Source of the DNA: Blasia pusilla
Lineage: Eukaryota
Reading direction: 5' to 3'
DNA: 64,000 nt
Assembly: GCA_050084515.1 (NCBI GenBank)
Contig: CM114271.1
Coordinates: 3,658,001 to 3,722,000, forward strand
This document shows positions 2,081 to 56,545 of the stretch, piece after piece. Numbering within the stretch: position 1 is the first letter of the stretch; each line of letters begins with the position of its first letter. Below the pieces are notes generated by a model, which did no database searches, was not told where the DNA came from, and worked only from the letters and a program-made list of their open reading frames with translations. Both the position numbers and the translations under genes were made by a program.

Positions 2081-2089
2081 GAGGGGGAG
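2081..2089 (+). other. Polypurine tract of copia A
   Basis: GAGGGGGAG directly before the LTR start. Confidence 0.85.
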
Positions 2090-2403: not shown

Positions 2404-2405
2404 AT

Positions 2406-8147: not shown

Positions 8148-8327
8148 AGTAGGTAGTTCTACATTCCGACTTGTGTCTGTGACATGGATGAAAAGAAGGC
8201 GACTAATGATGGGGCCACTTGAGCACCCGACCTTCTTGCTCTTAGCGTCCGAGAGATTTTGTCATGGTAGGTAGGGATAGATGGTTATCTGGAGTTAGAG
8301 GGACCTGACCACCAACTATGGGGGTGA

Positions 8328-8454
8328 TTGGAGATATTTTGGTACTTCTTGTCTCATTTTTTGGATGCCATGAGTTAACATGGGATCGTGCGTGTTTGTG
8401 TGTGTGTTCGGTGACAGCGATGTATGTTGTGTAGCGATGTGTATGCGCACGATA
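8328..8454 (+). repeat. 127-bp 3' terminal repeat of copy 1
   Basis: TTGGAGATATTTTGG...GCGCACGATA; same position after PHD stop as in copy 2; inverted relative to 2406-2532. Confidence 0.9.
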
Positions 8455-8458
8455 ACTA

Positions 8459-9106: not shown

Positions 9107-9721
9107 ACTGAGATATTGGCCGAAAATGACTGTGAGAGCAATGGGGTTGAGGGCTAATTTGAGGGGCTTGGCTATCTTTCCCTATAGTTAGGGGAACCTC
9201 GGAGATTCCCAAAAGTACTAGTAAGGGAGGAGTCTCTCCAAGAAGTCTTGGAACACGAATCCCCACTTTGAGCATCAAACGGCGTCTCAAGGGCACGGGA
9301 TGGAACGGGGGTTTGGCGTTGGAACTCGAAACCCAAACCTGATCCAAGGGAGTGGACTTTGTACGCCACACTTGGATTCCGACCCATCTCTGATTTTGTG
9401 TGAGTCTCGGTTAGGGACTCATTAGAGGTCCATCGGACAGTTGGAACCGCCAGGCGCGAAACGCCGTTTGAGGTTCTTGAACCGACCAGAAAGTCTGTCC
9501 CAAGTCTTTCGAGACTTGCCTGTATTGTAAACCGTGAAACTAGGAAGGTTGAGCATTGATGAGAGGCCGAGACGAGAACTCGGAAAGTTAGCCCGCTGAT
9601 TGATCTAGATCCGACTAACCAGAGTGTGTGTTTGGATGCAGATCAGTGTTGAGAGCGTGAACTACTGAACACACGCTTTCGCAACAACAAAGATAAACGT
9701 TCAAGGAGAGTAGGCGCACGA
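9107..9721 (+). repeat. 3' part of an LTR homologous to solo LTR 62551-63564
   Basis: Shared blocks such as GTACTAGTAAGGG, CCCCACTTTG, AAGGGCAC, AAACCCAAACC, AGTAGGCGCA in the same order. Confidence 0.7.
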
Positions 9722-21800: not shown

Positions 21801-24800
21801 ACTCTGTCCTCCAACTTGGTGACTACGCTCATCAATTTCTCATTCTCCAGAACAGAGGATTGAAAAGTCATCTTCAGTTCCTCTATCTCCATCGCTTTCG
21901 AGTCCAGCACCTGACATTCACTCTTGAGTTCCGCTTCGAGCAATGCCACTGCTTCGCAGTACCTTTCGGCGCCCTCCTCAAGACTAAAGACTCTTTCCTC
22001 CAACGTTGCCACTACACTCTTCAATTCCACATTCTCTTGCGCAGAGAGTTGAACCTCCATCTTCAGATCCTCTAACTCCATCACTTTCGAGTCCAGCACC
22101 TGACGTTCACTCTTGAGTTCCGCTTCGAGCAATTCCACTGCGTTGCACTGCCTTTCAATGTCCTCTTGTAGACACACGACTCTTTCCTCCAACGTCGCCT
22201 CTACGCTCTTCAATTCCACATTCTCTTGCGCAGAGGATTGAAACTTCATTTTCAGATCCTCCAACAGCACCTCCTTCGAGTCCAGCACATGACCTTCACA
22301 CTTCCGCTCTTCTTGAAACGATTCTACTGCTCTGCGCTGCCTTTGGGTATCCTCCTCGAGAAAAACTACTCTCTCCTCCAACTTTGCAACTACACTCCTC
22401 AACATATCGCATTCTCGCTCAGTGAATTCGGATTTCAGTTTTGCATCACCAAGCTGTGAGGAAGTAGCATCAAGCACCTGCTTTTCCCGCATGAGTTCTT
22501 CCTGTGAGACTTGGAGATCTCTGTCTTTCTCCTCATTGGCCCCCTGAAGCCCAACCACACGGGCCTCCAAATCACTAATGCGACATTTGAGCGAATTATT
22601 TTCTTCCGTAGAGGAGACCAGTTTCACCTTCACGTGCTCGAGTTCATCTTCTGCAGCTTCGAACTCTTCCTCCAGAACTTTCAGAGCTTCCTTATTCCTC
22701 TCTAGATCGTCACTAAGCTCAACTTCACTTTCCTCCAACTCCGTAACCAACCGATTCAAATCGGCATTCTCCTTCAGAGAAGCGTCCAATTGAACCTTCA
22801 CGTCGTCTGATTCCCTCTCCATAGCTTCAAACTCTTCCTCTTGACGATTGAACCCTTCCTCTAAGTCTTTCAAGGCCCTGTTTTTCATGTCGATGAGTTC
22901 CTCTAAGCCGATCACTCTCTGATTCAACTCATCCAATTGATCATTCGAACAATCTGCACTACTCCTTTCCGCTTTCGCCATTTCCAACTGCTGCTCCATG
23001 GAAAGTAAAGCTGCATTCGTCTCTGCCGTACTGGATTCCAGGTTCCTGATGATGTTTTCAAGTTCAAACTCAGATGCGGCAAGTTTACATTTTAGCTCTT
23101 CTATCTCTACTTGTCGGGCTTCAAGACAAGTTTCAGTATCCTTTGTAGCGGAAGCACTTCGTTGAATAGCCTCCAAGACACTTTTCTTCTGGTCGAAAAA
23201 TACCACACAAAAGGATTCGATTTCCCCTCTAAGTTCTTTTGATCCTAGCCCGTGCAGCAGGTCCTTCTTCATCAGATGTACCTCTCCCGAAAGAGCAATC
23301 ATTTCCCGCTCATGTTCCTCTTGGAGATCGCCTATTTCTTTATACACAAGATCTACGACACCTAGCATTTTGGACAGCTCCAGAACCGTCTCTTCGCACA
23401 ACCCCAACAAGTGATTCTTCTCCCTCTCCATGTCATTGTTGAGATTCGTTATCTCTGTGACAAGTTGGTCCCTCTCCGCCTGGGCTATAGATCTCAAAGA
23501 AATTTCACGCTCAGACTTCGAGTCTTGCGCATGGTGTTTCGCAGCCTCGTTAGCCCTCACCAACGCATTCACCAGCACTTCAGCTTCCATTAACGTGGCT
23601 TGGCTATCCTGGAATTGCTGATGCATAATGGCAGCTTCCCGACCCTTCTCGCTTGCCTCGAGCTTCGCAGCCGACATCTCTTTGTGCAACTCTTCTCTTT
23701 CCTTCCGCCATTCTTTCTCTGCGTCATACATTTTGTCTTCCCACTGAGACAAGATTCCTCCAACTTTCTGCATCTCCCTCTCGAAAGATTCGATCTGGAG
23801 TTGCCTCTTAGACAACTCATCCTCGGCCGTCGCCAGATTCATGGAGATAACGTCGTTCAAGCGAACACTTTCCTGATAGACCATAGCCAGTCGATCCTTC
23901 TCACCTTGCATCTTGTCCATCTCAAGCTCAGCCTCCTTCAGGTTCGAGATTGCGATCTCCATCTCTTTCCTTGCAGACAAGATGGTGCTATCTTTCTCAA
24001 AAATGGTGGCCCTGAGCCCATCGACAATCTCCTTTTCATTGTGCTCACTTGAGACATCCTGGAATTTCATATTCATCCTTGCAGACATGGACGCCAATTC
24101 GTTCAGTTTCTCCACCATCCCTTCTTTCTCGGCCTTCCAGCTTTCTTCTGAAAGGACGTACTGCTGTAGTAAGGTCTGCACGGCAGCAACCTTTTCGTCA
24201 GCTTCCACACATTTACCCTCCAACAGTTCCGAATTCGCCTTCATAGTATCAAGCTCTACTTGTTGCTGTTCCACCTTCGACATAGCGACTAATAATTCCT
24301 CATGCACATCTTCTAACTCTTTCTCCAACTCTGCCTTTCGGACACTCAAAGATTCCACAGTCTCCATCATGCTTGACATCTCCTTTTCGGTGGCGGACAG
24401 CCTCAACTCAGCGACATGAGGCTGCTCCCGCAGCTGCGTTTCACTGGCCTCTAATTTCGCTTTGAGAACATTCATCTCCTTCTCCAAGATCTCTTTCTCA
24501 TTAAGAAAGTTGTTTTTCTCTAGCAGGAACTCCTCGTATGCCTTCTGGAGGGTGAAGGCCTGCAACTGGGTCTGTCCAAATTTGTTCTGCAAGAGAGTCA
24601 GCTCTTCCTCTGTATCTTTCAGAGTTTGGATGTTACAAGAGGCTGCGGACTCCAACATTTCCACATCATCCTCTAGAAGACCTCTCGCTGTCTCCAGGTC
24701 TCCCAATTCCTCGTGCAGCGCGGTCATTCTTCTGTCAGCTTCCTCAAATACTTGCCGACTTCTCGTGAAACCATCAAATACGGCCTCTTCCCTCTCATGA

Positions 24801-27800
24801 ACCTCTGCATTCAAGAGCTTCAAATCCAGTTGAAGCATTTCCTTCTTGACTCGCATGTCCTGTACCTCTTGCTCTGCAGTTGCCTGTTCACACTCCCATA
24901 CCCTCTTAGCCTCCATCAACTCTTCCATTCGTAGTGATATCGAGCGCTCCCGCATTTCTGCTTCACTAACCCTGGCTTGTACTCTGGCCAGATCTCCCTG
25001 AATTTGAATCAGAGCCTGCTCTTTATCATTGCAAGCCTTTTCGGCTTCCACAGAAGCACATACCAACTTAATCCTCTCAGCTTCCAGTTCCTCTTTGGCA
25101 ACAGTAAGCGCCTCGATACCTTTCGCCATTTCTGAAACTCTGAATTCCGCTTGCTTCAAGTTGGACTCGAGACTTAGAACTTCTAGACGCAGAGATTCTA
25201 CCAACTTCTCATGCTCCAAACATTCATGCTCGGTCTGCTCTTGCTCTAGGATCAGGGTAGCCTTCTCGTCTGCCCACTTTTGAGACTTGGCGATCTCTTT
25301 ATCTAGAGCCTGCTGGCATGCTTCATGATCTAAGTGTGCGCATTCAAGCTCTCTGTCTCTGAGCTTCAACGCCGTGGTTACTGAAGAAAGTTTAGACTCT
25401 AAACTCTCCAACACTGATGTCTGCGATGCGAAATCTTCCTCCAGAGCTCTCACTTTGGAGAGGCTAACATGCAAGCTTTCCTCAGCCGATTCAAGACTCT
25501 CTGCACTCGCTTCGAAATGTGATACTGCATCCAATGCATTCTCCAGTCCCTCTTTGACGGAATTCATGAAATAATCACTCTCTACCATCCAAGTCTCACG
25601 GGAGGAGACTGCATGGGACACTACTTTCAAAGCCTTACTCTCTACTTCAGAAACTTGCAATTCAGCCTTCAATAACAACTCTTCCACCTGGCCGATGAGC
25701 ACCTGGCTTCTGGCGTATTTCACTTCCAGAACTTGGAATTGCGACTTCAAGGAGTCATTATCACGAACAGCAAGCTCATGCTCCTGGGCTAGCTTCTCAT
25801 GTCCCTCAACTAGAGACCGATATTGATCCGCCAGCATTTCCTTGTGGGAACGATACTCTTCCAGTTTCTCCTGCAAGGACGCGATTTCGATCTCCTTTTC
25901 CGCCACTGCAATTTGAGCCTCTTGATTCTGTGTTCCCAGCGTGATCTTAGCCACTTTGAGCTCCTTGATCCTGTCAAGAAGCTGTTCCACCAGCACAAAA
26001 GCAGCCATCGATTTCTTTTCCGACTCTCGGATCATGGATTTCCCATCTTTTGAATCCAAGATTGGTTCCTTCTCGGGTGAGCAAGAACCAGCCAACACCG
26101 CTTCACTAAGGGCTCTAACCTTCTCTTCTGTTTCCCTGACCAGCGATTGGGCATCCTGCAATCGGTTCTGCAGGAGCACACCTTTCAGCATCTCAACCTT
26201 CGACTTATCTACCCTTTGAAGGTTCTCCAACTCGATTGCTGAACTTGACTTTTGAGCGATGGATTCCTGGATGATCTCATCCATTTCTTTAGAAGCTTCT
26301 ATGAGCGCCTGATCTCCTTCGGAAAGGTAGTCGATAAGTTTGGCCGTAGCACTTTCCCAATCTTTGTGAAGGCCCCGAATTTCAGCATCCTTTCCACTCA
26401 ATATAGCTTCGTATTTACTAGCTAAATGTCCCTTTTCTCCAGCCAATTTCTCAACATTCAGTTGCTGCTCTTCCAACTCTTTCTCCAATTGAAGGATTTG
26501 CAGCTTCGCCATGGCTTCCAATTCCGCCCCGGCAGCCACATCCTCTCTCAATTCCAGGATCTCGGACTGCATTGAAGTGATGGCAAGAGCTGTCTCTGTC
26601 TCCACTTCTGATCTCGTCACTTCCATTTCATTCTCGCGAGCGATCCGAAGAGCCCTCTCCTCCTGAAACTGCTTGTTGGCTCTTCTGACCTCCTCTCTCT
26701 CCCGTCTAGCTTTCTCCAACTTCTTTTGCAAACCGTAAAGAGCAGGCTCATAGGCGCTTTTCCCTCGCCTTTGAAAGCTGGTGTTCTCCGTTTGCTCAAG
26801 AACTTCTGATCTCTCTTCGTTTACGTTGGGCTGCTTCAACGAATCCAGCAGCATGGAGTGCTCGGTTTGCAGATTCTCAAGCTCATTGATGGAGAACAAT
26901 TGTTGTCCTTCAAGAGCCTGCACAATATTTTGCTCGTGCTGAACTCTAGCTAAAGCTTCTTCGAGCTGCTTTGACAAGACTTCGATCCTCTCTTCGGCTA
27001 CCGAGCGCTGTTCTTGCTCCTCCTTCAAAACAGCCTCAAGAGACTCGAGCTCCAGCTGCAGCTGCATAATTTCTTCAGAGTGCCTCATTTCAAGCTCTTG
27101 CACCTTCGACCATCTTTCTTGTGCGGACACTTTCCCCACCCCATGCTTCTCCAGCGTGCTTGGCCCTTGGGCAACTTCTTCCGAGACCACGACGCCCCTT
27201 ACTTCCACTGCTTCAGTCGTCTGATCCGCTCCGACTCTTCCAGAAAGTTCGGCTATAAGATCTTGAGCTTCCCTGAGCTGTGTCCTCAATTCGGATTCCT
27301 GAAATAACAATACGAAGGTGGGTATCAGTAACCTTCGAACCACCTGAAGACGCACATCTGTCCACAACTAACATCTATGCTCAGAATTCTTTCAACGACG
27401 TCAGCATACCTGGATGCGCCAAAGCATGGCCGATTCTTGAATGTGGGTCAACGACTCGCGCTGCTGTAGAGCAATCTCCTCGGTTTCCAGTCGTATACGC
27501 TTCACCGTAGCTTGGGCAGTGGACGCAGTCTCCTGTAGGCATCACCGATCAATGGTGAGTGGCTGCTTCTTTTCACCTGCAATCTCACGTATCGGGATAG
27601 AGAGAAAACATGGTAGAAGATGTACCTGGGCTGCAGCAAGACTGGCCTCGGTGCTGTGAAGCCGCTCGGTAACTTCCTCAGCGGACACGAGCTCATTCTT
27701 CCATGTCTCCAAAGACTGATTACAGTGTCGAGGAGCAAGTTAGCAAACATCGACCATGATAAAACGCGCTTGCGAGAACTGACTCAATGATACTACATGT

Positions 27801-40862: not shown

Positions 40863-42577
40863 TATTCTACACGACCATATCATAATCTTGAAAGTTAATT
40901 AAGTCCAAAGATAGTATGGCATTCAAGAACAACAACTTAGGGGTTTTTGTAATTACGTGACTTAATTCATATAAGAGATCCTATTTGAGTGGAACAAAAA
41001 TTCAACTCCATAATCTAGTGGATCGAATAGTTTTATTTTAAGATTGAAGGGTGAAATGGGTCAATGGAGTTGAGAATCTCAACAAGTCTCATAAACTTAT
41101 TCGGAGCAGAAGAACACTTCACTATTGTCCTCAAGAAGTCCCAATTGAATAGAAACTTCTTAAAATTTTGATATAGCACTCCATCCAAAGTTCCCAAAAA
41201 TTCATATAAAGTTGCACCTCGAACACGATGAAAAAGAAATCACAACTAATGACATTCTCCATTGTTTATGAAGAAGTATAATCATTTAGTACACTCTATA
41301 ATGCGCTCTTCTACCCAATTCTTCATATCAAAGTTAAGTTTTTAAATTGAATATAATATAAGAGAATGGGATGTATATTATAGTGCAATCTGTACTAGAT
41401 TACCAATAGGATGATCGCAATATTTTCTTCTTCGTATCCTATGAGTTCATCTTTTATTATACCAACGATAATATGAAGGAAACTAGAGATATACATATCA
41501 ACAAGCAAGAGGAAATAATCAAATACTTGTAAACCACTATGTTATGGCGATCTCCTTGTTTCTCTGAATAACATCCTTAAGCGCCTCATCATTATTGAAG
41601 TAAGCTATTTAAATAAACTATTTGTGCCATTAGTAGATGAACGGCTAATCTCACGATACGTGGATATTTTACAAACAAATCAAATTTCAAAATTTTCCAA
41701 CATGCCTCACAAGAAGAAATATATCTCACGCAATAAAGGAAGAAGTTAGTACAAATAGAAATAAATAACGAATCTTTATGAAAATATTTTAAGAAATCCT
41801 TAGGAGAATCAAATCATCCAAAGATTCTTATATGCATATTCTATTAGTATTTTATAACAAAAAGAGTGTTGGTATCTTATACTAAAATCAAGGATAATAT
41901 ATATGATTAATATAAAATCAAGGATAATACATAAGGCATGATCCATCGATTAACAACTATTTTTCAAAAATATTTGTAAATATGGATAGGGAATTTCCTA
42001 TCCACATATGGAGCATTGAGATTTAATTCTCCACATAGACCATTAATTATGCAATTATCCATACTAAAATAAATTATAGGATCAATATTGGATCAAGAAT
42101 TTCAACATATGTTATATTATCATAATCAAAAGCAATATGTGATTTATCCCCGCATGCCAAAATAATCAAAATACGAACATATGGAAAGTCTCTTTTTTGA
42201 AAGTCCACCACATGGATGCATACCAAAATATTACCAAAAATATTTTTTTTTCTTCATGAGTGTTAAAATCCTCCTCGTCTCCTTTAGTTGACCAAACAAT
42301 AATGTTCGTGTAATCTCATGCCACTTAGGATTACATGTCATGGTAAAAAAGTAATAAAAGTTAGGAGTAGTAGTCACTTGGGATATGTATGGATAGAAAA
42401 AGTGCATATTTTCGGAAGAAAAGATTTAGATAGTTAGAAAAAAGAAAAGGTATACGGTATTGAAGATTGAGTTACAGTCAAGCTCATGAGACACCTGAAC
42501 TGCTACATTTGGTACTCACACGAAGTAGGGAAGCTTAATCTTGGTTAGTCAGTTAAGCGCAATTATCTTAACTAGGG

Positions 42578-42704
42578 TGTTGTGCGCATACACATCGCTA
42601 CACAACATACATCGTTGTCACCGAACACACACACAAACACGCACGATCCCATGCTAACTCATGGCATCCAAACAACAAGACAAGAAGTACCAAAATATCT
42701 CCAA
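42578..42704 (+). repeat. Terminal inverted repeat (3' end of copy 2)
   Basis: Reverse complement of 51389-51515, about 11 mismatches in 127 bp by manual alignment. Confidence 0.92.
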
Positions 42705-42884
42705 TCGCCTCCTTAGCTGGTGGTTAGGTCCCTCTAACTCCAGAGAGCCATCTATCCCTACCTACCGTGATATACATCTCTCGGACGCTAAGAGCAAGAA
42801 GGCCAGTGCTCATGTGGTCCCATCATTAGTCGCCTTCTTGTCATCCATGTCACAGACATAAGTCAGAATGTATAAGTACCTACT

Positions 42885-43211
42885 CTATATACATCTGGGA
42901 CACATCCATTGTACATGAGGAACCCTAATGAGAGGTGGCGTCAAACATGCCATATGCCATCCTCTTGAACATCCATCACAGACTAGCATAGTGGCTGCAC
43001 CACGGACAGAACCACACAACATACACCGCAAGCTTGTAGGAACTATTGCTAAGCTCGGATCAACTGTACCATCAATGTTAGGAAGGTGACATGGCGCACA
43101 ATTACGCACGTGGTTCTTCCATACCATACCATCGCGTCCCTCCAGCAAGAGAACACCGGATGGCAAAACGTCACGCACTCTCAAGATAGTGCGCCATGCA
43201 GTCACATCCAA
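42885..43211 (-). pseudogene. Integrase C-terminal extension with PHD finger
   Basis: C4HC3: CMLC...[29 protein letters not shown]; in frame with integrase across a TAG at 43251. Confidence 0.92.
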
Positions 43212-43250
43212 CGTCGTCGGTGCCGTCTACTGCAAGTAGACATAATCTCC

Positions 43251-45790
43251 CTAATGAAACCTCCGGATAGTTGGTCGATAACTACCACCCCGAATAGTCG
43301 CATACCTCAACGTATCCCGATGCTGCGCGATCGCCAAGTTCTCGAACGTCATGGGCATCACTCTTCGAAACAACTCAGTCCTTTGAGAACATGCTCGCAT
43401 CCATACATCTGGGTCATCAAGGTCCAGGACCTCACCAACATCTCGATGAATGGCCGCAGGTAAATCTGGCTCTCGGCCATAAAGTAGCAAGTACGGTGAA
43501 AAAGACGCTAAGGATGCTTGCCTGCTGAATCTATATCCCATCGCCAACCACGGCAACTGGAGGTCCCAATCTCCTAGGTGACCTCTCTGCAAGCCATACT
43601 TGCGTAAACCCCTCTTCATCGTCTGCACAATTCTCTCCGCTAATCCATCCGCCTCGGGATGATCTCGCGAAGTCATGCGGTGGTCGATCAGCGCCTGATC
43701 ACACAAGGCCTGGAACTCACCGTGAAACTCGGTACCCTGGTCTGTCAACATCTTAACTGGTGCGCCATAATGACTCAGCACTCTGTCAAGGAAGGCATAA
43801 GCTACTCCCTCACTCGCTTTGTCAGGCAATGCAACCAACTCGATCCACTTCGAGAAGTGCTCAACCATCACCAACACATAACGACTGTGACACTCGGTCA
43901 AAGGCAAAGGTCCTGAAAAATCCAAACTCCATCTATACCCTAAGCGCATGATCGGTAATGGATACAATTTTGGAGTTGGAGCATTGAACGATGCTCGGAC
44001 TCGATCACACACCATGCACTTGGAAACAAATAACTCAACGTCAATCTGCATGCCTTGCCACCAATACTGAATCTGGAGCAAGTTGTACGTCTGCTTCACC
44101 CTAAAGTGACTCAACTCCTTGTGGGCATGCTGCACTAGTGGTGCTCTCTGTGAAGGATTCGGCACTACGCGTACTCTATCATCCTCCCAAACCCTCAAAA
44201 CATGTATCCCCTCCCAACGGAACCGTCTGGCCCGCTGTAGGATCCAATCCTGCTCTCTAGCACCCACGATTTCCGCAACGCTACCAGTATGAAGGAACTC
44301 CAAGACTACTCCATCATCATTAATATCTCGACCACCTATCGTCTCCTCACTGGCCTCGAGATCCAAGGACTCTCCACTAGACCTCGCCATCGAAGTCTCC
44401 ACACTCTGGCTCTCCATGGCCAACATGGCTAAATAGGCTGACTTGTGCCATTCTGGCACTGACTCCTCATCACTCTCTCTATGCCATCGAGCTCCAGTCG
44501 CATCTTGCTGGCTCGGGCATGGGTTACGACTCAACCCATCTGCATCTTGGTTGAGCATCCCAAGTCTATGTACCACCTGAAAATCATACTCCTGCAACAA
44601 TAGAGCCCATCTCGCAAGCTTCCCTGTAAGCTTGTTGGACTTCATCAACCACTTTAGTGGTTGATGATCAGTGATGATGGTAAAGGGGTTGCCGAATAAG
44701 TAACACCTCAAAATACGCGACAACCCACACTGCAGCCAAGCACTCACCCTCAAATGAGCTATACTTCGCCTCTGCAGTGTTGTTCGAGCGTCTAGCGTAA
44801 GCCACCACGAACTCTCTACCCTCATCATCATGTTGGGTGAGCACTGCTCCAAGCCCCAACATGCTCCAATCTGTGTGCAATTGGAAAGGACGCCCCTGAT
44901 CGGTCTCCTCAAGATGGGCGCGGACGTCAACCTATCCTTGAGCAAGTGAAATGCTCGCTCCAGCTCATCCCCCCAGTTCCACTTGTGATCTACCTTGGTC
45001 AGCAAGGTTAGCGGCTTCGCAATCGAACTGAATCCCTTGACGTACCGCCGATAGAAATTCGCCAATCCCATGAATGCGCGAACATGGCTCACGTTTGTAG
45101 GGCATGGAATGCGTGAGATAGCCTCTATCTTCATCTGCTAAACACCAAGGCCCCTTGGGTATATCGTATGACCCAAGTACTCAATCTGGTCATAGAAGAA
45201 CTTGCACTTGCCTCGATGTAGCTTCAGCCCATGTAGTTGCAATCGTCAAAACACCTCCTCAAAATGTCGCTCATGCTCCTCAATCGTGGCGGGAAAGACT
45301 ACAATGTCATCAATATAACACCTAGCGAAATCCAGACCAGCCAAGATCCTATCCATGACCCTCTGAAACTCATCCGAGGCGTTCTTTAACCCAAATGGTA
45401 AGAATGGCCACTAGAACAAACAATCCTTCCCGTGAGGATCGATGCCCCAAAATGCCGTCTTTTTCCTGTCCTCCAATTTGATAGGCAGTTGATGGTATTT
45501 GGCTCGCAAATCCAATGAACCAAAGACCTTTGCGTGACCAATCGCATCAAAGATCTCCTCAAGGATGGGCATGGCATACCTGTCGGACTTCGTCTGCCGA
45601 TTGATAGGTCGGTAATCCCCACACATCCGCCTATCCGTCCAGCTGCCATGCACATCCTTCTTGGTAGGCATGACAGTGGCTGATGCTTACTCCCCATGTG
45701 ACACCTCCAGTAGTCTTGCTCCGACCAAGTCCTGGCTCCTACTCTAAATCAGATCTCTCTCCATATCACTGTACCTGTAGGGTCGTCACT
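43251..45790 (-). pseudogene. RT, RNase H and integrase of copy 2
   Basis: RMCGDYRPINRQT, CYIDDIVVF, HTDWS..LGAVL, TDHQPL, HHCC, D(WSLDF)-D(LTDQG)-E(GLAER); several stops and frameshifts. Confidence 0.93.
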
Positions 45791-46284
45791 CGACAACTCA
45801 ATTCGGATCCCCGGTCCCTTCAGCGTACCCAAATCCTCCATGTTAAACGCAAAGCAGCTCCTATAACTCGTGAGGAACTGATGTATCCGGCGCCGCTCTC
45901 CTCCTGTCAACTTAGGGCCCATATCTGGCTCCCAAGTCTCCATCGTGACTACGATAGGACTCTCCGGTGCATATCGGGGGTTGCTTATGTGCAACCCCGT
46001 CTCGAACAATAACACTCGGCCGCTCTCCTCCAGCCAACTGCAAACTCTGATCTCCTCCACATGCACTGTCTAGAACCACGCTCGATGATGTGGCTATCAT
46101 CTCATGGCATACCTGCAAAACATCCCAAGAAGTCCAAGGGTGTCTCTCCCGATCTCCCCTAGTGTGTCGATCTCCTTGGGAGTTGCCCCCAGCCACTGCC
46201 TCCACCGTCTCGATAGACATGGGGCTCACCAACGCAACCGTTGTGATCTGTCGCGATCTCATACGACGTTGCTCCGCCACTTCC

Positions 46285-47280
46285 AAGCTGAGGATCCATG
46301 TCAAGCAGTTCAGGTCCATCGCCTGACCCAAGACATGGCGTCGTGATGCCTCTGACAGTGACGGTACTGCCGTCATTCCTATGGGAAATCCCATGGCTTG
46401 CTCTCTCTTTTCGGCGTTGGGCTCCACCAACCGCTGAACCTGGTTATCCCAAACCAAGCCAGGACCGGCCTTTTTGTATGCATAAGAAGCGGGAAAACTC
46501 ACAAACGTGGGCAAGGCTGCCCGCGGGCTGCCTACCCTATTGACCACAGTCAACGGTGGTCGATCATTGTGCCTCACTGCCTGTGATCGACAACCTGGAT
46601 CCAGAATGGAATCCACTAACAAATGGGAGGGGCGGTCCACTCTCCCATACGCCCTCCGTAACACCGCATGGGGCATCAAGTTGGTCCATCATAGATGTGG
46701 GCAATGGGCTCTAGAACCTACACTCGCCGCATCTAAGAATACTGTTGGGCCGATCCAGGCACGCACCTGATGAACACTCGTCACCACCTGTGACCTGAAG
46801 TCTCCTAAGATTGGCACATTCTCCTGAATGTAGGCTGGAGAACGAGACTGGTGCTCCTGCAACTGCCGTAAGACCCTCAACATCTCCCAAAACAACGTGG
46901 ATTGATTGTCAGCCAACCCACTGCCTCGTCCAGCACTCGATTGGCCCTCACATGGCCAACCGGAAATGACCAAATCAATGGTCCCTACCCGCTCTAAGTT
47001 CTCGCCCAAAGAACGTAAATACCCTCGTAAGGAAGCGTGGTATCCTGCATCATGGACGCTTGCATAATAGGTCAGGAAAACGTAGGCGTAACTGCGCCAC
47101 ATGTCGTAGTGAGATGCGCCTTGCAACATCATCACTCTCCACATACACGTAGTGCTGCACTCGTAATCCTACTTGCAAAATAGCAGCTAACCCGGTGCTA
47201 ATCCCTCCAAAGAGATCTAACACTCGAATACCCTCCTCGAGAATACACCACATAATGGGTGTGGTATCCAAGGGTGTCAT
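46285..47280 (-). pseudogene. DNMT3-like C5 cytosine DNA methyltransferase domain of copy 2 (disrupted)
   Basis: VLDLFGGIS; YVESD; DLVISGWPCEGQSSAG (PC codons 46950-46955); QENVP; AHCPHL*WTN; EKREQAMGFP; RRHVLGQAMDL. Confidence 0.92.
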
Positions 47281-47899
47281 CGTAGCACTCCCTGCTACCT
47301 CGGGTTCCTCAGACCCGTCATGCTCCGGTGTAAACGCCTCGCTCCACGCGGTCTACACGTGCTCATCTGCCAATCGTTGAAGCTCCTCAGTCAAGCCCCA
47401 CAGCGGCACCTCTCCTCAAACGAAACTCAAGTGCCCGCTCAACTTCGACGGTTCCACCGAACCCGAAATTGCAAAATCTATGAATGGGCTCCTTCCGTCA
47501 ACGTGGGAAAACCCACCCCCGTTCGAATCAGCCGGTGGGGTGCTTCAAAGCACGTCCATGAAACTTGGGACCGTGGTTTTACATCCAATACGTGGGCTAA
47601 AAGGAAGAAGATGAAGGAGGGAAGGGGGGTCAGATATAAAATTTTTAATTAATCATCCACTTTAAAGGGGTCTCGGCAACGAGCAACCTTCACAAAATGA
47701 TACGGCTTCCATTACACTCCTCTCCATAGAATTATCAAGAACGGGAGTATCCTCTGCATGGACATGTCCCTAAATCAAATCACTAGGCCAAGTGATGGCA
47801 CTGCTAAATGCTGCTAATGTTGCCATCTCTTGTGGCCGTTGCTCGATCATTGCACCTGTGAATCGAACGGGTAATTAGCTAAGGCGCCCATCACCTGAC

Positions 47900-48355
47900 T
47901 GGCATCCTGGTCTGTAGGATGCAGACTCCCCCCCAGTAATCCCGGGAAAACCCCATCGGGTATAACACTGATCCACCAACCAAGACGTCGTAGGACTCTG
48001 CATTAGTCACTATCGCCTTGGCTCGCACGACGGACTCATCTCTAGGATGTCTTTAGCGAATCCTCACCACGACCTCCTGTCGGGTGATATACTATGTGGT
48101 ACTTGCTCCACCCAAGGATGCCTGTATCCGAAATGGACAACGCTCCACATCGGCTCTCGTCAAGCCCAATCCTCTAAATGACGCTTTCCCCAACATCAGG
48201 GGTTGCGCTCCTGAATCCAACAAGACACGTTGCAGACTAAAAGCTCTATCTTCAGGACTCACCAACTCAAAGACCTCTCCTCGATTATCCAGCAACACAA
48301 CACCATGAGAAGCCATGGCACGCTCTATCGCGGGTCTAGAGGGCATCTCCGCCAT
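47900..48355 (-). pseudogene. Retropepsin-type aspartic protease of copy 2
   Basis: VLLDSGAQPLM active-site motif; downstream YDVLVG-like motif. Confidence 0.85.
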
Positions 48356-48930
48356 CCTAGCAGCCGTAGCCTGCTATGAATCTGACGTGGACGGCCCGAG
48401 CATCCGCTCCAAGGGCAGGTCCATCACCTCCTCTGCAATCATCTCTGAATGTGATGCAAGAACTCCAACTCCACGCTCACATAGTGAAGCGGTCACCCAA
48501 AAAGCCTCGGCGGACGTACCCCCCAACATCATAACATCGGAAGAAGAAAATAAAGAAGCGCGGTACACAATGGTGGCCGCCCCCAACAATGTCCTCCACA
48601 CATGCCCCTCCTGAGCATCAACAATAGGAGTCGTTGCACTCGCTTCTCCCATCGTCCTCCATGCTTGCACACCAACAACATCACCAACTCTCCAGGAACT
48701 CTAATCAGGATCCATCGATGGGGTCCTCATCGCCTCAGACAACGTGAAAGACTGAGGAAGCCTTGTCTATTTCCTGGCATCCCCTCGCTATGGATCCAAC
48801 TCTGTGGCTGCTCCATGCGTCACAACTGCGGCTGCCTCCATCTAGGCAATCCCGCACATCCAACTTGGATCCTCCATATCTCTAGCTGCTCCATATGATG
48901 TCGATGCTACGGATCCGGCATCAGGTAATC

Positions 48931-50325
48931 TCAATGCCATAGCGGCAATCTGCTCTTGTAGCTGATGTACCTGAGGAGCCATCCTAGCCTCTCGCTCGGC
49001 ATCTCCCTCGACACGTCTAGGTGGTAGGACTCTCGGAGAATCTTTATGCCCAAACCACCTCCACGGGAAGCTCCACCACCGTGTTGGGCAACTCCAGCTC
49101 CTCGTCCTCCAACGGGACTACCTGGTGCACGATCTCTAGGCCCACCCAGATCGGCTACTTGCTCTAGTGCCCTCTTTGGCCCTCGTTCCGGACGTAACTC
49201 AGGATGTAAACTCAAAAACATGGCGCGTGTATGACCATATCTCTGACAATAGTCACACTGATAACCTCCTGGTGCAGCACCATCTCCTCCTCCATGTTGA
49301 GGCACACGTCCATGACCCTAACGAGTGCAATCGCGCTGATGATGGGCTCCACCACATGACCAACAAGTAATAGAAGGCGGTTGCTACTGAGCAGCATATG
49401 AAGGCGGAGGTCTCTATGGCACGGCCTCTCGGTATCCTCCCTGAGCTCGTGATGCCATATTCAACCTATCTCGGAGTCCACGTTGCTGCACAGGTGGTGC
49501 GGACAATCGTGATTGCTCTCGCCTAGAACCCATGGTGGCTACGCTCTCCTCCGCCATGTTGCGCTCAATGTTCTCATCGGTCCTAAAAATATCTCTCAAC
49601 GTAAGGGAGGTGTTCATAAGAAGCACCGGTGTCCGCAGGGTCCGATCCATCTACGCGTACCATGATTGGATAGCCTGAGCCTCTATCACCCCTTGAGTGA
49701 AGTTGATCAACCGGCGCAATTGAGTGTAAGTCTCACGTAAACTCTCATCCGGGTGCCTCTGGAAGTTGTTGATGCTCCGCAACTTCTCCGTCCGTACCCC
49801 CTGGTAGCTCGCCCTGAACTCAACAAAGAACTCAACCACGGGGTTGAACTTGTGACAAACCCGACTAGACGGTGCAACTTCTCCAATGCGAGTGACCCCT
49901 CCTAAAACATCACTAGTGGAAGAGGAAGTAGCCTCTCCTGAATCCTCCTCCTCCTCTGGGAACGGCTCCGTCCATAACATAAAGTGTGGATCATAGTAGA
50001 GCCTCCACGCCTCGATCTCACGTGCATATCTTTGAGAGAACTGATGGTAATTGTCCACGGGCGCCCCCTCTAAATCGTGGAACATACTAGTCCATGCAAT
50101 AAACAGGTTAAACTCTCTAGAGTTCCTAGCTCGCTCTGAATCACACAAACTCCTTAACTCCGCAATGAAGTCGTGTAGCTCTATGGTGCCTATAGCACCC
50201 AAAAACCTACGCGGTCCTCTACCTTGGTCGTCCATCTCGTACGCCCAACTGGTAGGACCACTCGATGTGTACGGTGGATCACTAACACACTCCTCTACAC
50301 GCTCCCCCTCCTTTGAAGACGACAC
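48931..50325 (-). pseudogene. Gag-like region with two zinc knuckles
   Basis: ORF 49651-50325 (FQRHPDESLRETYTQLRRL), CWSCGGAHHQRDC and CDYCQRYGHTRAMF. Confidence 0.75.
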
Positions 50326-51388
50326 AGAAGGAGAGGTGGTCTCTCACTTGGAGACCCTTGAAACCTCGCATCACTCCGAGTAAACCCTCTAGAGCTACTC
50401 TGAGGTCCACTACCTCGCCTCTCAAAATCCTAAAAGGACGTCGTGATGGCCCTCGTGCCCCTCTCACATGATCACTCTCAACCTCGTGAGTAATCTCTCA
50501 ATCACTCATCCCAAACATCGGCACTCGATCTACACTCTCCCTCCACGAGACGTGTAACAAGCGGCAACAAGCCGCGTGGTGCGGAAAATCGATCAGGCTA
50601 TCATCTCATAGACAACCTACCCTCAACTCTGGGCATCCCACACAGGTCTATGTCCCCTAAACCACATACATAAATAATGCTCTCAGCATCCACACAACCC
50701 AATATCCCCAAATAAACTACCCAAATCCTAGAATCCCTCACGCGTGCAGGGTAAAGGACCAGAATGGATAACCTGAATACACGTCGATGTCACTCCTCAG
50801 CAACAGCAAATCTCGACCCTAACTCGGTCATGGAGACAACTCCTCCAATCAGCAAGTCATACTCCTCCCGTACTGACGTTGCTCAAAACTCCTTGATAGA
50901 CAGTGCGACTCCAACGGAACGATGCGACGTTGCAGGCGGCACGGAAAGGCTACGAACCGCACGGCCGTCGATGGTGGGATGCGCCACTCGGCGGCATACC
51001 CTCCTCAATCAACAATAAACCCACACTCTCCTCCACAATGACGGTGCGGTGCGGCCATAAGCGGCAATCGGCGGCGCGTTGCGGCTACGAGCGTCACAAC
51101 ACAGTACTCGATCGTCGTCAAACGACTACCAATCACAACATAGCATCATGAAATCAAAACTCAAACACCATAATTGAAGGTCATCTGCCATCACTGGTTG
51201 ATGACAAAACTGTGATGACGGTGGCGGCCAAAACAAAGTATGTGGTGGCGACGCAAGTCAGAGAATCATCGAACATCGTGGAAGATCCTCCACTCCGTAA
51301 CGGCGGCAATGCCAACCAAAGGGTGGACAACGGAAGGTGGATCGTTGACGGTGACGGTTGACTGTTGATGGTGACGTTGACGGTTGAA

Positions 51389-51515
51389 TTGGAGATATTT
51401 TGGTACTTCTTGTCTCGTTGTTTGGATGCCATGAAATAGCATGGGATCGTGCATGTTTGTGTGTGTGTTTGGTAACAGCAATGTATGTTGTGTAGCGATG
51501 TGTACGCGCACGATA
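51389..51515 (-). repeat. Terminal inverted repeat (5' end of copy 2)
   Basis: Reverse complement of 42578-42704; ORF track shows MASKQ.DKKYQNISN on opposite strands at the two ends. Confidence 0.92.
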
Positions 51516-51713
51516 TGGTTAATCACAATTAGTCTAACTCAATACTATCATTAGGGTTAGGGTTAGGCTATGTCCCATAGGCTATGTCCTATGGGACATA
51601 GCCTATGGGACCAACCTCCACTCATTCTCTCATTGCAAGTTTTGTTCTCCATGGTAATGTGTGAGTGTGAGAGTCGTTTCCCACCAGTTATGCTTCTTTA
51701 GCAATTTCCCACA

Positions 51714-51725
51714 TGATATTAGAGC
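51714..51725 (+). other. Degenerate tRNA-iMet primer-binding site of copia B
   Basis: TGATATTAGAGC vs canonical TGGTATCAGAGC, directly after LTR-terminal CA. Confidence 0.8.
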
Positions 51726-52244
51726 GATAGGAGAACATTACTTGAAATTCTTGGTGTTTGAGGGGATAAGAGAGGCAACAGAAGGCAAAATTTTAGTTTG
51801 GGAGAAGGAAATGTTATTCAGAGCTCATTGGGTGCAGATTTCAAGTGGAGCTTTGACGGTGATAAAACTTTGGAGGCATTTTTTAGGGCTTTCCCAGTCC
51901 ATTTAGCCATCTGGGTCCGTAACAACTAGAACGATGCCAAAGGCTTATTCTAGCCACTACAAATGAATGGTTCCAAAAGCTCATTGAGAGCTTTCCAACG
52001 CACCCAAAATCGCTTGATTATGAGATTCTGAGCTCCTGCAGTAGCAATTTCAGTGTAGGAAAGTGCAATTAGTGAAGAAAAGTTGTGGAGTTTGCTCTCT
52101 ACAGGCCAATTTCGACTAGTTCTTTCATACAGTTGATCAATTTTGGAAAATTTCAAGTCAATTTCTATGTAGGAATGGTCTATGCTTCAATTGGAGTAGT
52201 AGAGAGCCTGAAATTATATTTTTTTGTGAGTGAAATCGTTCGTC

Positions 52245-55200
52245 ATGGAGCATTCCTCAACTGATATGATACATGAGAAGCTAGATAAACAGAATTACAA
52301 TGTTTGGAAGTTTCGCATGAAAAACTTTCTCGTGGGTCAAGAACTATGGGAGCTTGTCATAGGTGATGAGGCCAAGCTTGAAGGTGACTCAACAGACTTG
52401 AATGTTCGCGCCTGGAACAAACGCGCAAGGCAAGTAATCCACTGTATTTCAATAACGATCAGTTTGCCAATGATAGGTCACATTCAAGATTTTGATATTC
52501 CGAAGGAGGCCTGGGATGCATTGGAAAAGTTGTTCCATACATCTATCAAGGCCAAAAAGCTTCAATTGAAACAGGAATTGAACGAAATGAGGAAATGATC
52601 GTAGAGCATCAATGATTATATTTTGAGTATCAGACATATTGTTGATCACTTGAATAGCTTTGGAGTGACAGTAGAAGATGATGATATGAGTTTGTTCACT
52701 CTTCAAGGCCTTCCAAAGGATTATAAGTCCTTTGAGATATCTATCTCTGTGAGAGAAGTATCCAACCTTTCAAGAGTTAGTCTCACTGTTAATCAATGAA
52801 GAGATGCGCCTAGTAGGCAACGGTAATTGCTCTAGTCTGCAAGAGATTGCGCTATTTGCATGTTATGGATCAAACAGAGGCAGGGGTCGTGGCACAAGCT
52901 TCCGTGGTCGAAGTGGATATCAAGCATATGTAGGAAGAGGCACTCAATATAATTTCACTCAATCAACTATGAACCAATACCAGACACAATCACAAGGTGG
53001 TGATAGTGGAAACCGTTGGGATCGAGGTCAGCAGTAGAGGGTCCATGGATCTTGCAATTACTGTGGGATAAAGGGTCACTATGCAAATTTTTGCTTCAAG
53101 AAGAAGGCAGATATCTCTGTAGGACAGATAATAGAACAGGGTTATCAAGTGAAATTTAACGCAGATGGTTGTTGCATTGAAACAATGGATGACCAGACTA
53201 CGATAGCCAAAGGAACTAGATTTGGCAGAATGTTCAAATTAGATATTTTCTATGCGAGATATTCAAACAACAATGTATGGTCAAATCGGCCAACAAGTCA
53301 CAGATCTAAATATGTGGCATATAAGAATTGGACATATAAATCTTCAAAAATTATAGATTCTTTCATCATCTAATATAGTAATAGGACTCCCTAAATTAGC
53401 GAGTCCTGCTACGTTAGAGGTATGTCCTCCTTGCCAATTTGGAAAACAAGCTAGATTTCTTTTTCCAAAGCAAGATAGAAGAGCATCCAGAATATTGGAG
53501 TTGATCCACAATGATTTGTGGACAACATCATAACATAGCCTTATTGGTTGTCAGTACTTTGTTTCATTTATTGATGACTTCTATAGGTATATATGGGTAT
53601 ACTTTCTGAAAGCCAAGTCAGAGGTGTTCTCAGTGTTCCAAACATTCAGAGTTCTAGTAGAAAACCAGACTGGACAACACATTCTAAAATTACGTTGTGA
53701 TGGAGGAGGAGGGTATCTTTCAACAGAGTTTGATGACTATTTATATGAGCATGGCATCCAACGTCAAGTGACTTGCCGTTATACTCCACAACAAAATGGA
53801 GTGGCCAAGAGGAAGAATCGACATATTGCTGAAGCGGCACGAGCTATGCTGAATGAGAAGAACATGCCTAAGGTCTATTGGGTAGAGGTTGTAGCATGTG
53901 CAGTCTTCTTAATCAACCGAACTCCAACAACATGAGTTCATAATGAAACTCCATTCGAAGTCTTCACAAGAAGTAAACCTGATTAGACCCCAAGTCTGAA
54001 AGATGTATCTTCATTGGCTATGCTGATGGAATTAAGGGATATAAGTGCTACATTCCATCCTCTAGGCAGCTTATTATTAGTCAGGATGTTATCTTTGATG
54101 AGCTAAAGTCATGGTATCCTTCATCTGAGCATCTTCCACCTCTAAACTCGTCTGTTGAGGGGGGAGAATAGGATTGCAAACCAACAGACATTGTCTTCAA
54201 CTTCCCCAAGTACTAGTCCAGGATTAGGAGAGGTCCTAGATTCATCAGTTAAATCTGTGATTCCATGGATGGGAAGAGTACGTATTCAATCTTTTGACAC
54301 TAGTTAGAGGTCGAGTCAGGTGTCAGAGGCATCTACCTCTGAACAACAACTTCGTAGATCAAATAGAGTTACACATCTAGTTCATTTTAGGGTATGTGAT
54401 TCTGACTCCTCGTTATATGTCTTGAGAGAACAAGATCATACGGTTTTCATTATGTTGTATGTTGACGATCTCCTTATTATTGGGAATAGTGAAGAAATGG
54501 TATAATAAGTCAAGCTTAAGTTACAAGAAGAATTTGATATGAAGGACTTGGGAGAACTCAAGTACTTCCTTGGTATTGAGTTTATTAAGATAGGAGAGAG
54601 CATGTGGTTACTACAACGATAATATGCTTTTCATATGCTTTCAAAATATTGTATGACGGCTTGTAGTCAATCTCTATACCGTTGGATCAGAGTGTGAAGC
54701 TAAGAGTGGATGAAGGAGAGTTGCTTGCAGATTCTAATATGTACATGCGTATGGTTGAAAGTTTGATGGATCTAAGTATAACCAGACCAGATTTGAGCTA
54801 TGTTGTTGGCCTAGTGAGCCAATTTATGTAAGCAACTCGAAAACCTCACCTTGATGTTGTGAGGAGGATTATGCGGTATGTGAAATTCTCTATTCAATTC
54901 GGGCTTCAATTTGACCCTTCTCCTAGTTTTCAACTACAAGGATTCACAGATGTTGATTGGGCAGGAAGCGTGTCTGATCGACACTCCACATCTGGTTATA
55001 CATTTACTTTGGGAAGCGTAGTTATAAGTTGGGCTTCAAATAAGCAACCTACAATTGCTTCATCTTCAATAGAGGCTGAGTACAGAGGAGCAACCAATGT
55101 AGCATGTGAGGCGGTGTGGCTTTATCGATTACTTGTTGAGATTGATGTTAGTAACTTAGGACCTAGTGTAATATATGCAGAAAATATTAGTAGCATCAAG

Positions 55201-55399
55201 CTAGCTAATAACCCTGTGTTTCATGCTCGTACAAAGCATGTTAAGATGCACTATCATTTTATCAGAGAGAAAGTGCTTGCAGGAGAAATTGATCTTGTGT
55301 ATATAGGTACAGATCAGCAAATTGCTGACATCTTTACAAAGACATTGTCTATAGATAAGTTTGAGATGTTTAGAAATGATTTAGCGTTAGAGATATCGA
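52245..55399 (+). pseudogene. Copia B gag-pol remnant (protease and most of RT deleted)
   Basis: KLDKQNYNVWKFRMK gag start, CNYCGIKGHYANFC knuckle, LRCDGGGGY...TPQQNGVA integrase, RT 3' end, FTDVDWAG...IADIFTK RNase H. Confidence 0.9.
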
Positions 55400-55596
55400 C
55401 TAGGGTTAGTTAATCACAGTTAGTCTAACTCGAGACTATGGTTAAGGTTAGGGTTAGGGTTGCTTGTACATACCCTATATAATTGAGAAGGGGACCAGCC
55501 TCCACTCATTCTCTCATTGCAAATTTTGTTCTCCATTGTGGTGTGTGAGTATGAGAGCCGTTTCCGACCAATTATGCTTCTTTAGAAATTTTCACA
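55400..55596 (+). repeat. 3' LTR of copia B, lacking PPT and first ~110 bp
   Basis: Comparison with 2061-2403. Confidence 0.85.
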
Positions 55597-55693
55597 TACG
55601 GATCAAAGGTACCAATTAGAATCTCCAACCATCCTACACACAAAGTCTTACAAAAATAGAATGTATAAAGTAGGATGGAGGTTATGTGATTAA

Positions 55694-55939
55694 TATTATG
55701 AACATACACATAGCCATAAAACATACATTGCATCAACCACACAAAATATTGCACCCATTCATTCATCCTAAAAATATAAATGTGGAGGCCAGTAGTTACC
55801 AAAATATCTCCATAAATAAAATGTAAAATAGACGTAGTTCTCACAAATACCTCCATAAATGCAAAACTCTCTCTCTCTTTCTTTCTCTTTCTTTCTTTCT
55901 TTCTTTCTTTCTTTTTCTCTCTTTCTTTCTTTCTTTCTT

Positions 55940-55996
<57 letters not shown>

Positions 55997-56350
55997 CAAC
56001 AAGGAGCACTTTAGCTCCACCGCCTCATAGAAAAGAGGTTCAACAACAAAACAATGAGCTCCCAAACTCTCTCCCAAAATCCTTTCCTTGGTCACATCCA
56101 CAAAGAAGTTATCTCCTTGATCCCAAACCTGATTTAGTGGATCAAAGGTCATATTCTATAAATATAAAGTTAAATATTTAACAATAGGGAGCTTATCCGA
56201 AGTTGTAAGTTCTTCAAATAGGCTCCAAATAACCCCAAACAAAGGGGACAACTCCTCTTTCGGATTATCCTACTCCTCAACAAATCATTTATGACCTATT
56301 GGATTTGACTTCTTGTCTCCCTTAGAGTATTGCACGAATACTCTACGTTC
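55694..56350 (+). repeat. Old, CpG-depleted third copy of the ~640-bp unit, with an expanded CT/CTTT microsatellite (55867-55993)
   Basis: Colinear blocks CATACACAT, ACCAAAATATCTCCA, TAGTTCTCACA, AAGAGGTTCAACAA, AATGAGCTC, GTAAGTT, AAACAAAGGGGA. Confidence 0.6.
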
Positions 56351-56364
56351 CACCATAAAAGATA

Positions 56365-56545
56365 CTAGCCAGTATCCGTGTTGTGCAAGGATGAATGAAA
56401 ATTAGCTTGAGAAGATAAAGGGCTCAAATTTCAAAAGAGGCTAGTGGGGAGAACAACACCTTTCAATCAATTAGAGGCCAAAACAGACAAGTGTCCTCAA
56501 GAGGGAAGGCACCCCTATAAAGGCACTCTCCCATAATATAAAAGA
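56365..56545 (-). mobile_element. Small non-autonomous Helitron-like element (family 1), degenerate
   Basis: On minus strand: A|TCTTTTATATTATGGGAGAGTGCCTT ... GCACAACACGGA ... CTAG|T. Confidence 0.55.

Follow-up and report, generated by a model that had tools for sequence, protein, structure and literature searches.

The element at positions 42578 to 51515 of the 64,000-nt stretch of the Blasia pusilla genome analyzed here (the window; GenBank assembly GCA_050084515.1, contig CM114271.1, positions 3,658,001 to 3,722,000 of the forward strand) is, judged by its domain set and by pairwise alignments, a decayed and nearly full-length member of Gypsy-DNMT3, a clade of green-lineage Ty3/gypsy retrotransposons. 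It is bounded by inverted repeats. On comparison with metagenomic relatives and with a second copy in the window, this repeat proved to be the family's end unit B, present once in its place at the 3' end and once more, inverted, at the 5' end. We consider the inverted ends to be probably secondary (with a probability of roughly 0.55): an inverted unit, either a by-product or a separate unit of the family, would have been joined to a body that lacked its own 5' A unit (A1). Families of this kind are already known and have been briefly described; the inverted-end copies without a target duplication are a new form.

Throughout, copy 2 is the element just named (minus strand) and copy 1 the second one (2406-9107, plus strand); b' and a' are the inverted B and A units at the 5' side, and b1, b2, and a2 are the units at the 3' side. 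The coding strand of copy 2 is the minus strand, and position 51515 is therefore its 5' end. Its layout is inverted B, a 1,195-nt leader (X), body, polypurine tract (PPT), and B, with the following features given from the 5' end and followed by the flanking sequence:

51388 to 51515, minus strand: 5' terminal unit (b'), a complete inverted B with outer end TATCG (consensus TGTCG) and with its inner end at the exact B start
50193 to 51387, minus strand: leader X, GC-rich and with no Pfam domain, including the start of the gag-like open reading frame (ORF; Met near 50238)
49654 to 50343, minus strand: gag-like ORF of 230 aa from stop to stop, with homology to six relatives and no Pfam match
47918 to 48226, minus strand: protease (PR)-like stretch, 27-31% identical to the PR of relatives and absent from copy 1
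46269 to 47304, minus strand: C5 cytosine DNA methyltransferase (DNMT) region, interrupted by stops and frameshifts
43254 to 45785, minus strand: reverse transcriptase (RT), RNase H (RH), Integrase_H2C2, and rve (DDE integrase [IN]); the largest open piece is 43254-45137 (628 aa)
42888 to 43226, minus strand: C-terminal PHD finger of the integrase, by Pfam
42705 to 42714, minus strand: PPT-like run AAGGAGGCGA, adjoining B on its upstream side; the corresponding position in relatives holds a G-run
42578 to 42705, minus strand: 3' terminal unit B, the last 40-70 nt of which are homologous to the B of relatives at the nucleotide level
42458 to 42577, plus strand: first 120 nt of a Copia 5' long terminal repeat (LTR), which resumes at 51516-51714, so that copy 2 sits inside it

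The two arms of copy 2 (42582-42705 and 51388-51511) form an inverted repeat of 124 nt with 93% complementarity (92.7% by blastn), and the remaining inverted pairs between positions 41000 and 53000 did not exceed 28 nt, at 70-84%. The termini read TGTTG (42578) and CGATA (51515), or TGTYG...CRAYA overall. A degenerate 26-nt end motif was found at five sites in the window (2406, 8429, 9081, 42578, and 51490), versus 0 expected from 100 shuffles, and these five copies agree on the consensus TGTCG...CGACA. Neither a repeat search nor blastn detected a direct repeat of either end inside or beside copy 2, and no TGG-type primer-binding site was seen next to the 5' unit when the sequence was read by eye. 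The purine run AAGGAGGCGA lies immediately upstream of the 3' unit, and its equivalent in copy 1 is GGGGGTGA. In all these respects, a preliminary description made from the letters alone was accurate: the inverted ends are real, their consensus termini are those that it gave, direct repeats of the ends and a TGG primer site were likewise not found, the purine run stands before the 3' repeat in both copies, and LTR finders would miss an element that has no direct LTRs.

Unit B was recognized by comparison with the relatives: the b units of the window matched the last part of the relatives' B with 77-87% identity over 36-73 nt, and the 5' b' matched the same stretch in reverse. At the nucleotide level, this part of B was the only match between the window ends and the metagenomic loci, with nothing found for A or X. 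Comparison in both orientations detected no unit A anywhere in copy 2. Leader X likewise had no similarity to unit A in either orientation (Smith-Waterman scores of 14 and 10, versus shuffle means of 12.6 and 11.1).

The domain order of the element is gag-PR-DNMT-RT-RH-IN-PHD. Pfam identified Integrase_H2C2, rve, and part of RT_RNaseH on 43254-45137 of copy 2 as well as RVT_1 and RT_RNaseH on copy 1, and both copies have RVT_1, RT_RNaseH(_2), Integrase_H2C2, and rve in succession on their coding strand. A fragment of a C5 DNA methylase (PF00145; E value of 3.5e-9) was located at 46692-47168 of copy 2 and the PHD finger (E value of 9.3e-11) at 42888-43226. Polyproteins of relatives aligned along copy 2 from PR (48226-47918) through DNMT (47304-46269) to RT-RH-IN-PHD (45785-42891), with 27-46% identity; within this range, the DNMT part aligned at 38-46% over 46269-47304, in a broken reading frame. 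Compared with solved structures, the DNMT region gave weak matches to M.HhaI and DRM2, while a 258-aa frame at 45915-46688 gave no match. PR was detected solely through tblastn with relatives, and the gag-like frame, which has no Pfam match, is homologous to the 5' frame of six relatives. The tyrosine recombinase domain (PF00589) had no match in the 40 scanned frames (46 to 628 aa) of the two copies, both of which are full of stops and frameshifts. Thus, a gypsy-type element with RT and a DDE integrase, as first proposed, is indeed what the window contains, with RT, RNase H, Integrase_H2C2, and rve assigned by Pfam, PR by tblastn, and gag as an ORF. The methylase fragment and the PHD finger are additions to that picture, as is the B-A-B that forms the 3' end of copy 1 (see below).

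The homologue search gave 365 proteins (E value of ≤0.001) among 4,661 candidates. Most of the 120 homologues listed have RVT_1, RT_RNaseH, Integrase_H2C2, rve, and PHD, and 37 of these 120 also have PF00145. Those with names come from Klebsormidium nitens, Closterium, Chlamydomonas reinhardtii, and Haematococcus lacustris, and the best identity to the window frame among the homologues listed was ca. 52%. The K. nitens protein KFL_009030040 (P0018), which is among them, aligned over PR, DNMT, and RT-IN. Gypsy-type elements with DNMT and PHD are widespread in green algae and streptophytes. In the integrase-PHD clade, P0110, P0116, and P0119 carry a Dam-type adenine methylase (PF05869) instead of or besides the C5 methylase, in agreement with a 2026 preprint on retrotransposon adenine methylases (bioRxiv 10.64898/2026.05.21.726589). 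The clade was first described in K. nitens as KnitGypsy-Dnmt3 (de Mendoza et al. 2018, PMC5890265), and the name Gypsy-DNMT3 appears in the same preprint. With regard to the ends, our searches of the literature found one sentence in a figure legend and no other description: the legend to Fig. 4 of PMC5890265 calls the KnitGypsy-Dnmt3 repeats DIRS-like, and the legend to Fig. 1 gives DIRS as A-coding-B-A-B.

The ground plan of the family is provided by a metagenome scan that gave 80 loci with 39-74% protein identity. Among the 27 loci with enough 3' flank, nine have a direct B1/B2 repeat just after the integrase, and four of these nine (L052, L062, L064, and L070) have a direct A1/A2 pair too, which gives the arrangement A1-int-B1-A2-B2 (int, internal region). 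None of the 27 loci contains the 3' unit a second time, inverted, in the upstream part of the element, and a search of all 80 did not yield the B end in reverse complement. A direct A start upstream of the integrase was present at seven loci plus L062, L064, L070, and L039. The preliminary description had named direct repeats in most full-length copies as the finding that would speak against it, and this is what the metagenomic relatives display, with a direct A at the 5' end in 11 loci and an inverted B in 0. A full LTR pair was not found at the relatives' ends.

In the group of relatives most similar to the window, B terminates in ...TATGTTGTATGACGATATGTATTCGCACGACA and is followed either by the flank or by 2-3 nt and TGTCATGACC..., the A start, and the termini of the relatives are TGTCATG...CACGACA. 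Two integrated forms were recognized. Whole elements of the form A-int-B are L006 (9,887 nt), L018 (9,791 nt), L079 (9,814 nt), and L039 (9,131 nt), and L052 (11,027 nt) is a whole A-int-B-A-B element. The closest relatives (L020, L079, L018, and L006) showed no long terminal repeats of any kind and turned out to have the short A-int-B form. A G-run lies directly before B, and unit A (ca. 337 nt) has a TATA-like motif, GGGGGTATAAAG, ca. 140 nt in and ends in ...TTTTCA. Perfect 4-bp target duplications flank L006 (TGTG), L052 (AATC), L039 (CCAA), and L062 (TTTA); in L018 and L064, 3 of the 4 positions match, and L079 and L070 have none. These 4-bp duplications indicate that the DDE integrase does the joining. 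As far as our searches show, the exact termini, the 4-bp duplications, the two integrated forms, and the internal site at which the ends abut are new with respect to the literature searched. The suggestion in the preliminary description that the inverted ends reflect a new mode of replication finds, in the form given there, no support here: the clade has been described, its members in metagenomes have split direct repeats and 4-bp duplications, and the inverted repeat is a second B in inverted orientation.

Several side observations concern these loci. L039 was considered as an inverted-end relative and rejected, since the repeat lies outside the element, which is an A-int-B form with its CCAA duplication. 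Unit A of the gypsy relatives (L004-L079) contains a telomere-like repeat, GGTTTAGGGTTAG. In L062, a perfect 56-nt palindrome at 12279-12334 in unit B1 is missing from B2. L079 and L080 are one insertion with a shared flank (AACCCCCTTGTG...), recovered from two different metagenome records.

The family has two further occurrences in the window, copy 1 and a solitary unit:

2406 to 3045, plus strand: 5' side of copy 1, an inverted A-B (b' 2406-2533, a' 2534-3045) that abuts the gag-like ORF ca. 50 codons in
3046 to 8326, plus strand: body of copy 1 (DNMT-RT-RH-IN), without the leader, the PR region (ca. 1.8 kb), 184 nt at 3430, and ca. 270 nt at 8048
8327 to 9107, plus strand: 3' end of copy 1, B1-AC-A2-B2 (B1 8327-8457, 2 nt AC, A2 8460-8976, B2 8977-9106/7)
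55691 to 56365 (approximate), minus strand: old, strongly decayed solitary A-B unit without a gypsy body, recognized by sequence comparison

The 3' end of copy 1 is the canonical B-A-B of the family, in which A2 starts with a decayed TGTCAC. At the 5' side, 2406-3045 is the reverse complement of A2-B2 (8460-9107), with 84.5% identity over 655-658 positions. This inverted unit cuts into gag, leaving neither leader nor start codon, and the TATA-like motif of its A points outward. No target duplication was found for copy 1, a result that is uninformative since a Copia element ends 2 nt away. A segmental duplication as the source of both copies was rejected, since the two do not occupy corresponding positions with respect to the Copia LTR. 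The solitary unit contains a microsatellite, (CTTT)n/(CT)n, at 55868-55993, in the position occupied by a short (GA)n in the younger A units.

Copy 2 is embedded in the 5' LTR of a Copia element (42458-55597) whose own 5-bp target duplication, TACGG, is intact (42453-42457 and 55598-55602). Removal of copy 2 restores an uninterrupted Copia LTR, from which a net 1 nt is missing and in which nothing is duplicated. This target site is unlike those of the relatives, in which the 4-bp duplication is perfect in 4 of 8 cases and matches at 3 of 4 positions in 2 of 8. The window holds two Copia elements of the same family, 1-2403 (RVT_2 at 588-1217) and 42458-55597, with an LTR of ca. 315 nt (TATTGAAG...CCACA); a telomere-like repeat, TTAGGGTTAGGGTTAGG, occurs in the LTR at 51551-51567. 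Both Copia 3' LTR ends have an inverted gypsy A-B unit next to them, 2 nt and 93 nt away, and a third gypsy piece stands inside a Copia LTR. This association may reflect either an insertion preference or coincidence.

These surroundings bear on the idea that nesting and deletion after insertion produced the inverted ends by themselves, older A-B or B-ended units lying beside ordinary copies or having inserted into them, with deletions and the Copia insertion following. In copy 1, the lineage of the inverted unit is more ancestral than that of the 3' unit, the Copia 3' LTR ends 2 nt from the outer end of that unit, as in a region hit repeatedly, and a solitary A-B unit does exist elsewhere in the window, all of which would suit such a history. 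In copy 2, however, both outer ends meet a single Copia LTR position without duplication, which points to b', X, body, and B having been placed as one piece, and the Copia element beside copy 1 would need to have inserted no more than 2 nt from the unit end. We regard this explanation as improbable.

The arms were then compared with each other. In copy 1, a' and a2 are 84.5% identical, whereas b1 and b2 are 95% identical. The three 3' B units of both copies are 95-96% alike, while the two 5' b' units are 90-93% identical to all others and 89.7% identical to each other. Each 5' b' unit has ca. 8 private changes, versus 1-4 per 3' unit, and the two 5' b' units have one change in common, about the number expected by chance. 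When the old solitary unit serves as the outgroup, the private changes number 15 in a' and 29 in a2. Together, arm identities and private changes suggest that the 5' units were not copied from the 3' units at insertion and do not stem from one inherited, diverging lineage; the comparisons therefore argue against the 5' and 3' arms having been regenerated together.

This result is most relevant to the strongest competitor of the secondary origin, a heritable variant in the host in which the split direct repeats have been remodelled into inverted terminal repeats like those of DIRS1, the left repeat being rebuilt from the right one. The internal B would then act like an internal complementary region, the left repeat would be restored by way of a panhandle or by cDNA-templated extension, and both B ends would be integrase substrates. 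The layout of copy 1 fits, with B1 2 nt before the right repeat and with 2406-3045 matching 8460-9107 in reverse complement, and copy 2 would correspond to a short form, comparable to A-int-B among the relatives. An inverted B stands at the 5' terminus of two copies that are independent and lie at different sites, the unit boundaries are exact, and a target duplication is lacking, as in DIRS elements. There are also precedents: the DIRS-1 model as outlined in PMC7192593 restores the left repeat from the right one, and elements with a tyrosine recombinase likewise occur as inverted-repeat and as split-direct-repeat types. On the other hand, the arms were already unlike at insertion (84.5% for a'/a2, versus 95% for b1/b2), the 5' units have 2-3 times more private changes, and the derived changes common to both 5' units are no more than chance would give. 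The inverted A of copy 1 removes the gag start and has its TATA-like motif facing outward, the internal B is half of a junction copy of the DIRS type, the layout occurs in none of the relatives examined, and no tyrosine recombinase was detected in the 40 scanned frames. On balance, we hold a heritable variant to be possible, though doubtful.

We thus return to a secondary origin of the inverted ends, which is favored because copy 2 has no target duplication, because the inverted unit of copy 1 cuts into gag, because the 5' and 3' units differed at insertion, and because a solitary A-B unit (55691-56365) exists. The mechanism that we propose would start from B and A as parts, in this order, of one LTR, which would begin after the PPT, include the TATA-like motif, and end in CA before the internal region. 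The integrated forms would then represent an LTR element that has been opened within its LTR, at the short palindromic sequence ...CACGACA NN TGTCATG.... Such opening might take place from circles or from cuts at internal sites of linear DNA. In copy 2, the inverted B stands approximately where A1 belongs; the body may have lost its own A1, after which an inverted unit of the family would have been joined to it, either a B piece from the left of the internal site or an A-B unit. The product would have been placed whole in the Copia LTR, without a target duplication of the integrase type, and the inverted ends would play no part in replication.

Several observations weigh against this proposal. 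Both body-bearing copies in the window begin, on the outer 5' side, with an inverted B whose unit limits are exact, and to find it twice is improbable if such joins are rare. In copy 2, the distance from gag residue 42 to the terminus is 1,295 nt, versus ca. 1,505-1,830 nt from the A start in six relatives, so that the inverted B lies roughly at the A1 position, which looks orderly rather than random. The proposal does not account for the entry of copy 2 into the Copia LTR with exact termini and yet no duplication. Furthermore, the excess of private changes rests on small numbers (ca. 16 versus 7) and could result from faster decay at the 5' side.

Reads were mapped to copy 1 (window positions 1900-9600) at 85% likeness, and the read counts that follow refer to this copy. 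Among 114,767 whole-genome reads mapped, 351 were at least 99% alike, and with so few near-identical reads the copy equivalents of the family must number in the hundreds or higher. Among the read differences, C>T and G>A predominate. At position 9106, the B2 end, 1,583 whole-genome reads continue into unlike flanks (agreement of 0.33), which indicates that the B end is a true terminus in many copies. The read joints listed (2533/8327 on opposite strands and 8975 to 8327) reflect only the sameness of the B and A copies. A direct joint from the A end to the body was not found among the 15 joints listed (276 others), and depth at 2928-3064 was low. Reads also break at the short (GA)n run of the copy 1 A unit (loose ends at 8905).

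An assembly artefact, that is, a local inversion or a chimera in a highly repeated family, has to be considered in this light. The extreme abundance of the family (351 of 114,767 reads at least 99% alike) makes collapse or misjoining conceivable, and the reads were mapped to copy 1 only. Against this, one Copia LTR runs on, exact to the nucleotide, across both flanks of copy 2, and the 5-bp duplication of this Copia is perfect at two sites 13 kb apart, a configuration that a misjoin would not yield; furthermore, the end unit was found five times with exact boundaries, and the 1,583 reads pass the B2 end of copy 1 into unlike flanks. We therefore judge an artefact to be very improbable.

The family is transcribed in the host (RNA run X19), with sense-strand coverage rising from 5' to 3'. 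Over the body of copy 1, RNA reads are mainly minus-strand first mates, from ca. 13 at the 5' side to ca. 160 near the 3' end. Their direction flips over the inverted unit (93 versus 10.5), mirroring the 3' unit (9.8 versus 87), as expected if reads from the 3' unit map to either copy. In addition, 88 RNA reads depart from the flank at 9311 and all continue identically, suggestive of splicing or of a chimeric transcript at this point. Elsewhere in the window, positions 19379-27367 (minus strand) hold one open frame of 2,662 aa with no Pfam match and a strong GC skew, within which six tandem 189-nt (63-aa) repeats lie at 21265-22398.

The relatives imply that a retrotransposon with an integrase can exist without LTRs in its integrated form, and their ends, together with the internal site at which the ends abut, make it testable whether an integrase of the retroviral type acts at an internal or circle-junction site. 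The inverted ends in the window, if secondary, show that by-products of an unusual cycle can become fixed in genomes. If heritable, they would break the rule that retroelements with an integrase need direct repeats; this would be the first retrotransposon with a retroviral-type integrase to propagate with inverted ends and without a target duplication, and the dichotomy between DIRS1 and PAT/Ngaro would be mirrored within one clade. In practice, annotation tools based on LTRs miss or mislabel the whole family.

In order to put these elements into perspective, we compared them with known systems. Canonical Ty3/gypsy elements share with them PR-RT-RH-IN, Integrase_H2C2 and rve, a PPT before the 3' repeat, and TG..CA ends, as well as, in the relatives, a 4-bp target duplication. 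The differences are that the integrated form here lacks a pair of direct LTRs, that DNMT and PHD are additional, and that no TGG-type primer-binding site was seen next to the 5' unit. Ginger1/2 transposons, as presented in PMC2836005, also combine terminal inverted repeats with a gypsy-like integrase, but they lack RT, RNase H, and gag, while the window element has the full set of retrotransposon genes, a PPT, and B-A-B; moreover, copy 2 showed no target duplication. The suggestion of an intermediate between gypsy retrotransposons and Ginger-like elements is, in the form given, not supported; the element belongs to the described Gypsy-DNMT3 clade and has both RT and RNase H.

DIRS-1 and DIRS-like elements, according to PMC7192593, have in common with the window element the inverted terminal repeats, the lack of a target duplication, and, in many DIRS members, a methylase; DIRS-1 also has an internal end copy adjoining the right repeat, as copy 1 does. 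However, the window element has a DDE integrase and no tyrosine recombinase, and its RT is of the gypsy type by the Pfam domain set. The internal B of copy 1 copies one end, whereas DIRS copies both side by side (PMC7192593), copy 2 has no internal end copy, and the arms of copy 1, which are 84.5% alike, appear not to have been regenerated together. PAT-like and Ngaro elements (A1-int-B1-A2-B2) share their repeat arrangement with the metagenomic relatives and with copy 1 at its 3' end. They use a tyrosine recombinase and make no target duplication, unlike the relatives analyzed here, with TG..CA termini and 4-bp duplications. Finally, KnitGypsy-Dnmt3 differs from the window copies at the 5' end, where these have an inverted B (copy 2) or an inverted A-B (copy 1) instead of a direct A; copy 2 is also without a target duplication, and both window copies are decayed. 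In other respects, the two agree: a gypsy-type Pol and a Dnmt-type C5 methylase within the polyprotein upstream of RT are shared, the K. nitens protein aligns at 42-46% over DNMT and RT-IN, and ordinary LTRs are absent from both, in line with the figure legends of PMC5890265 and with the B-A-B at the 3' end of copy 1.

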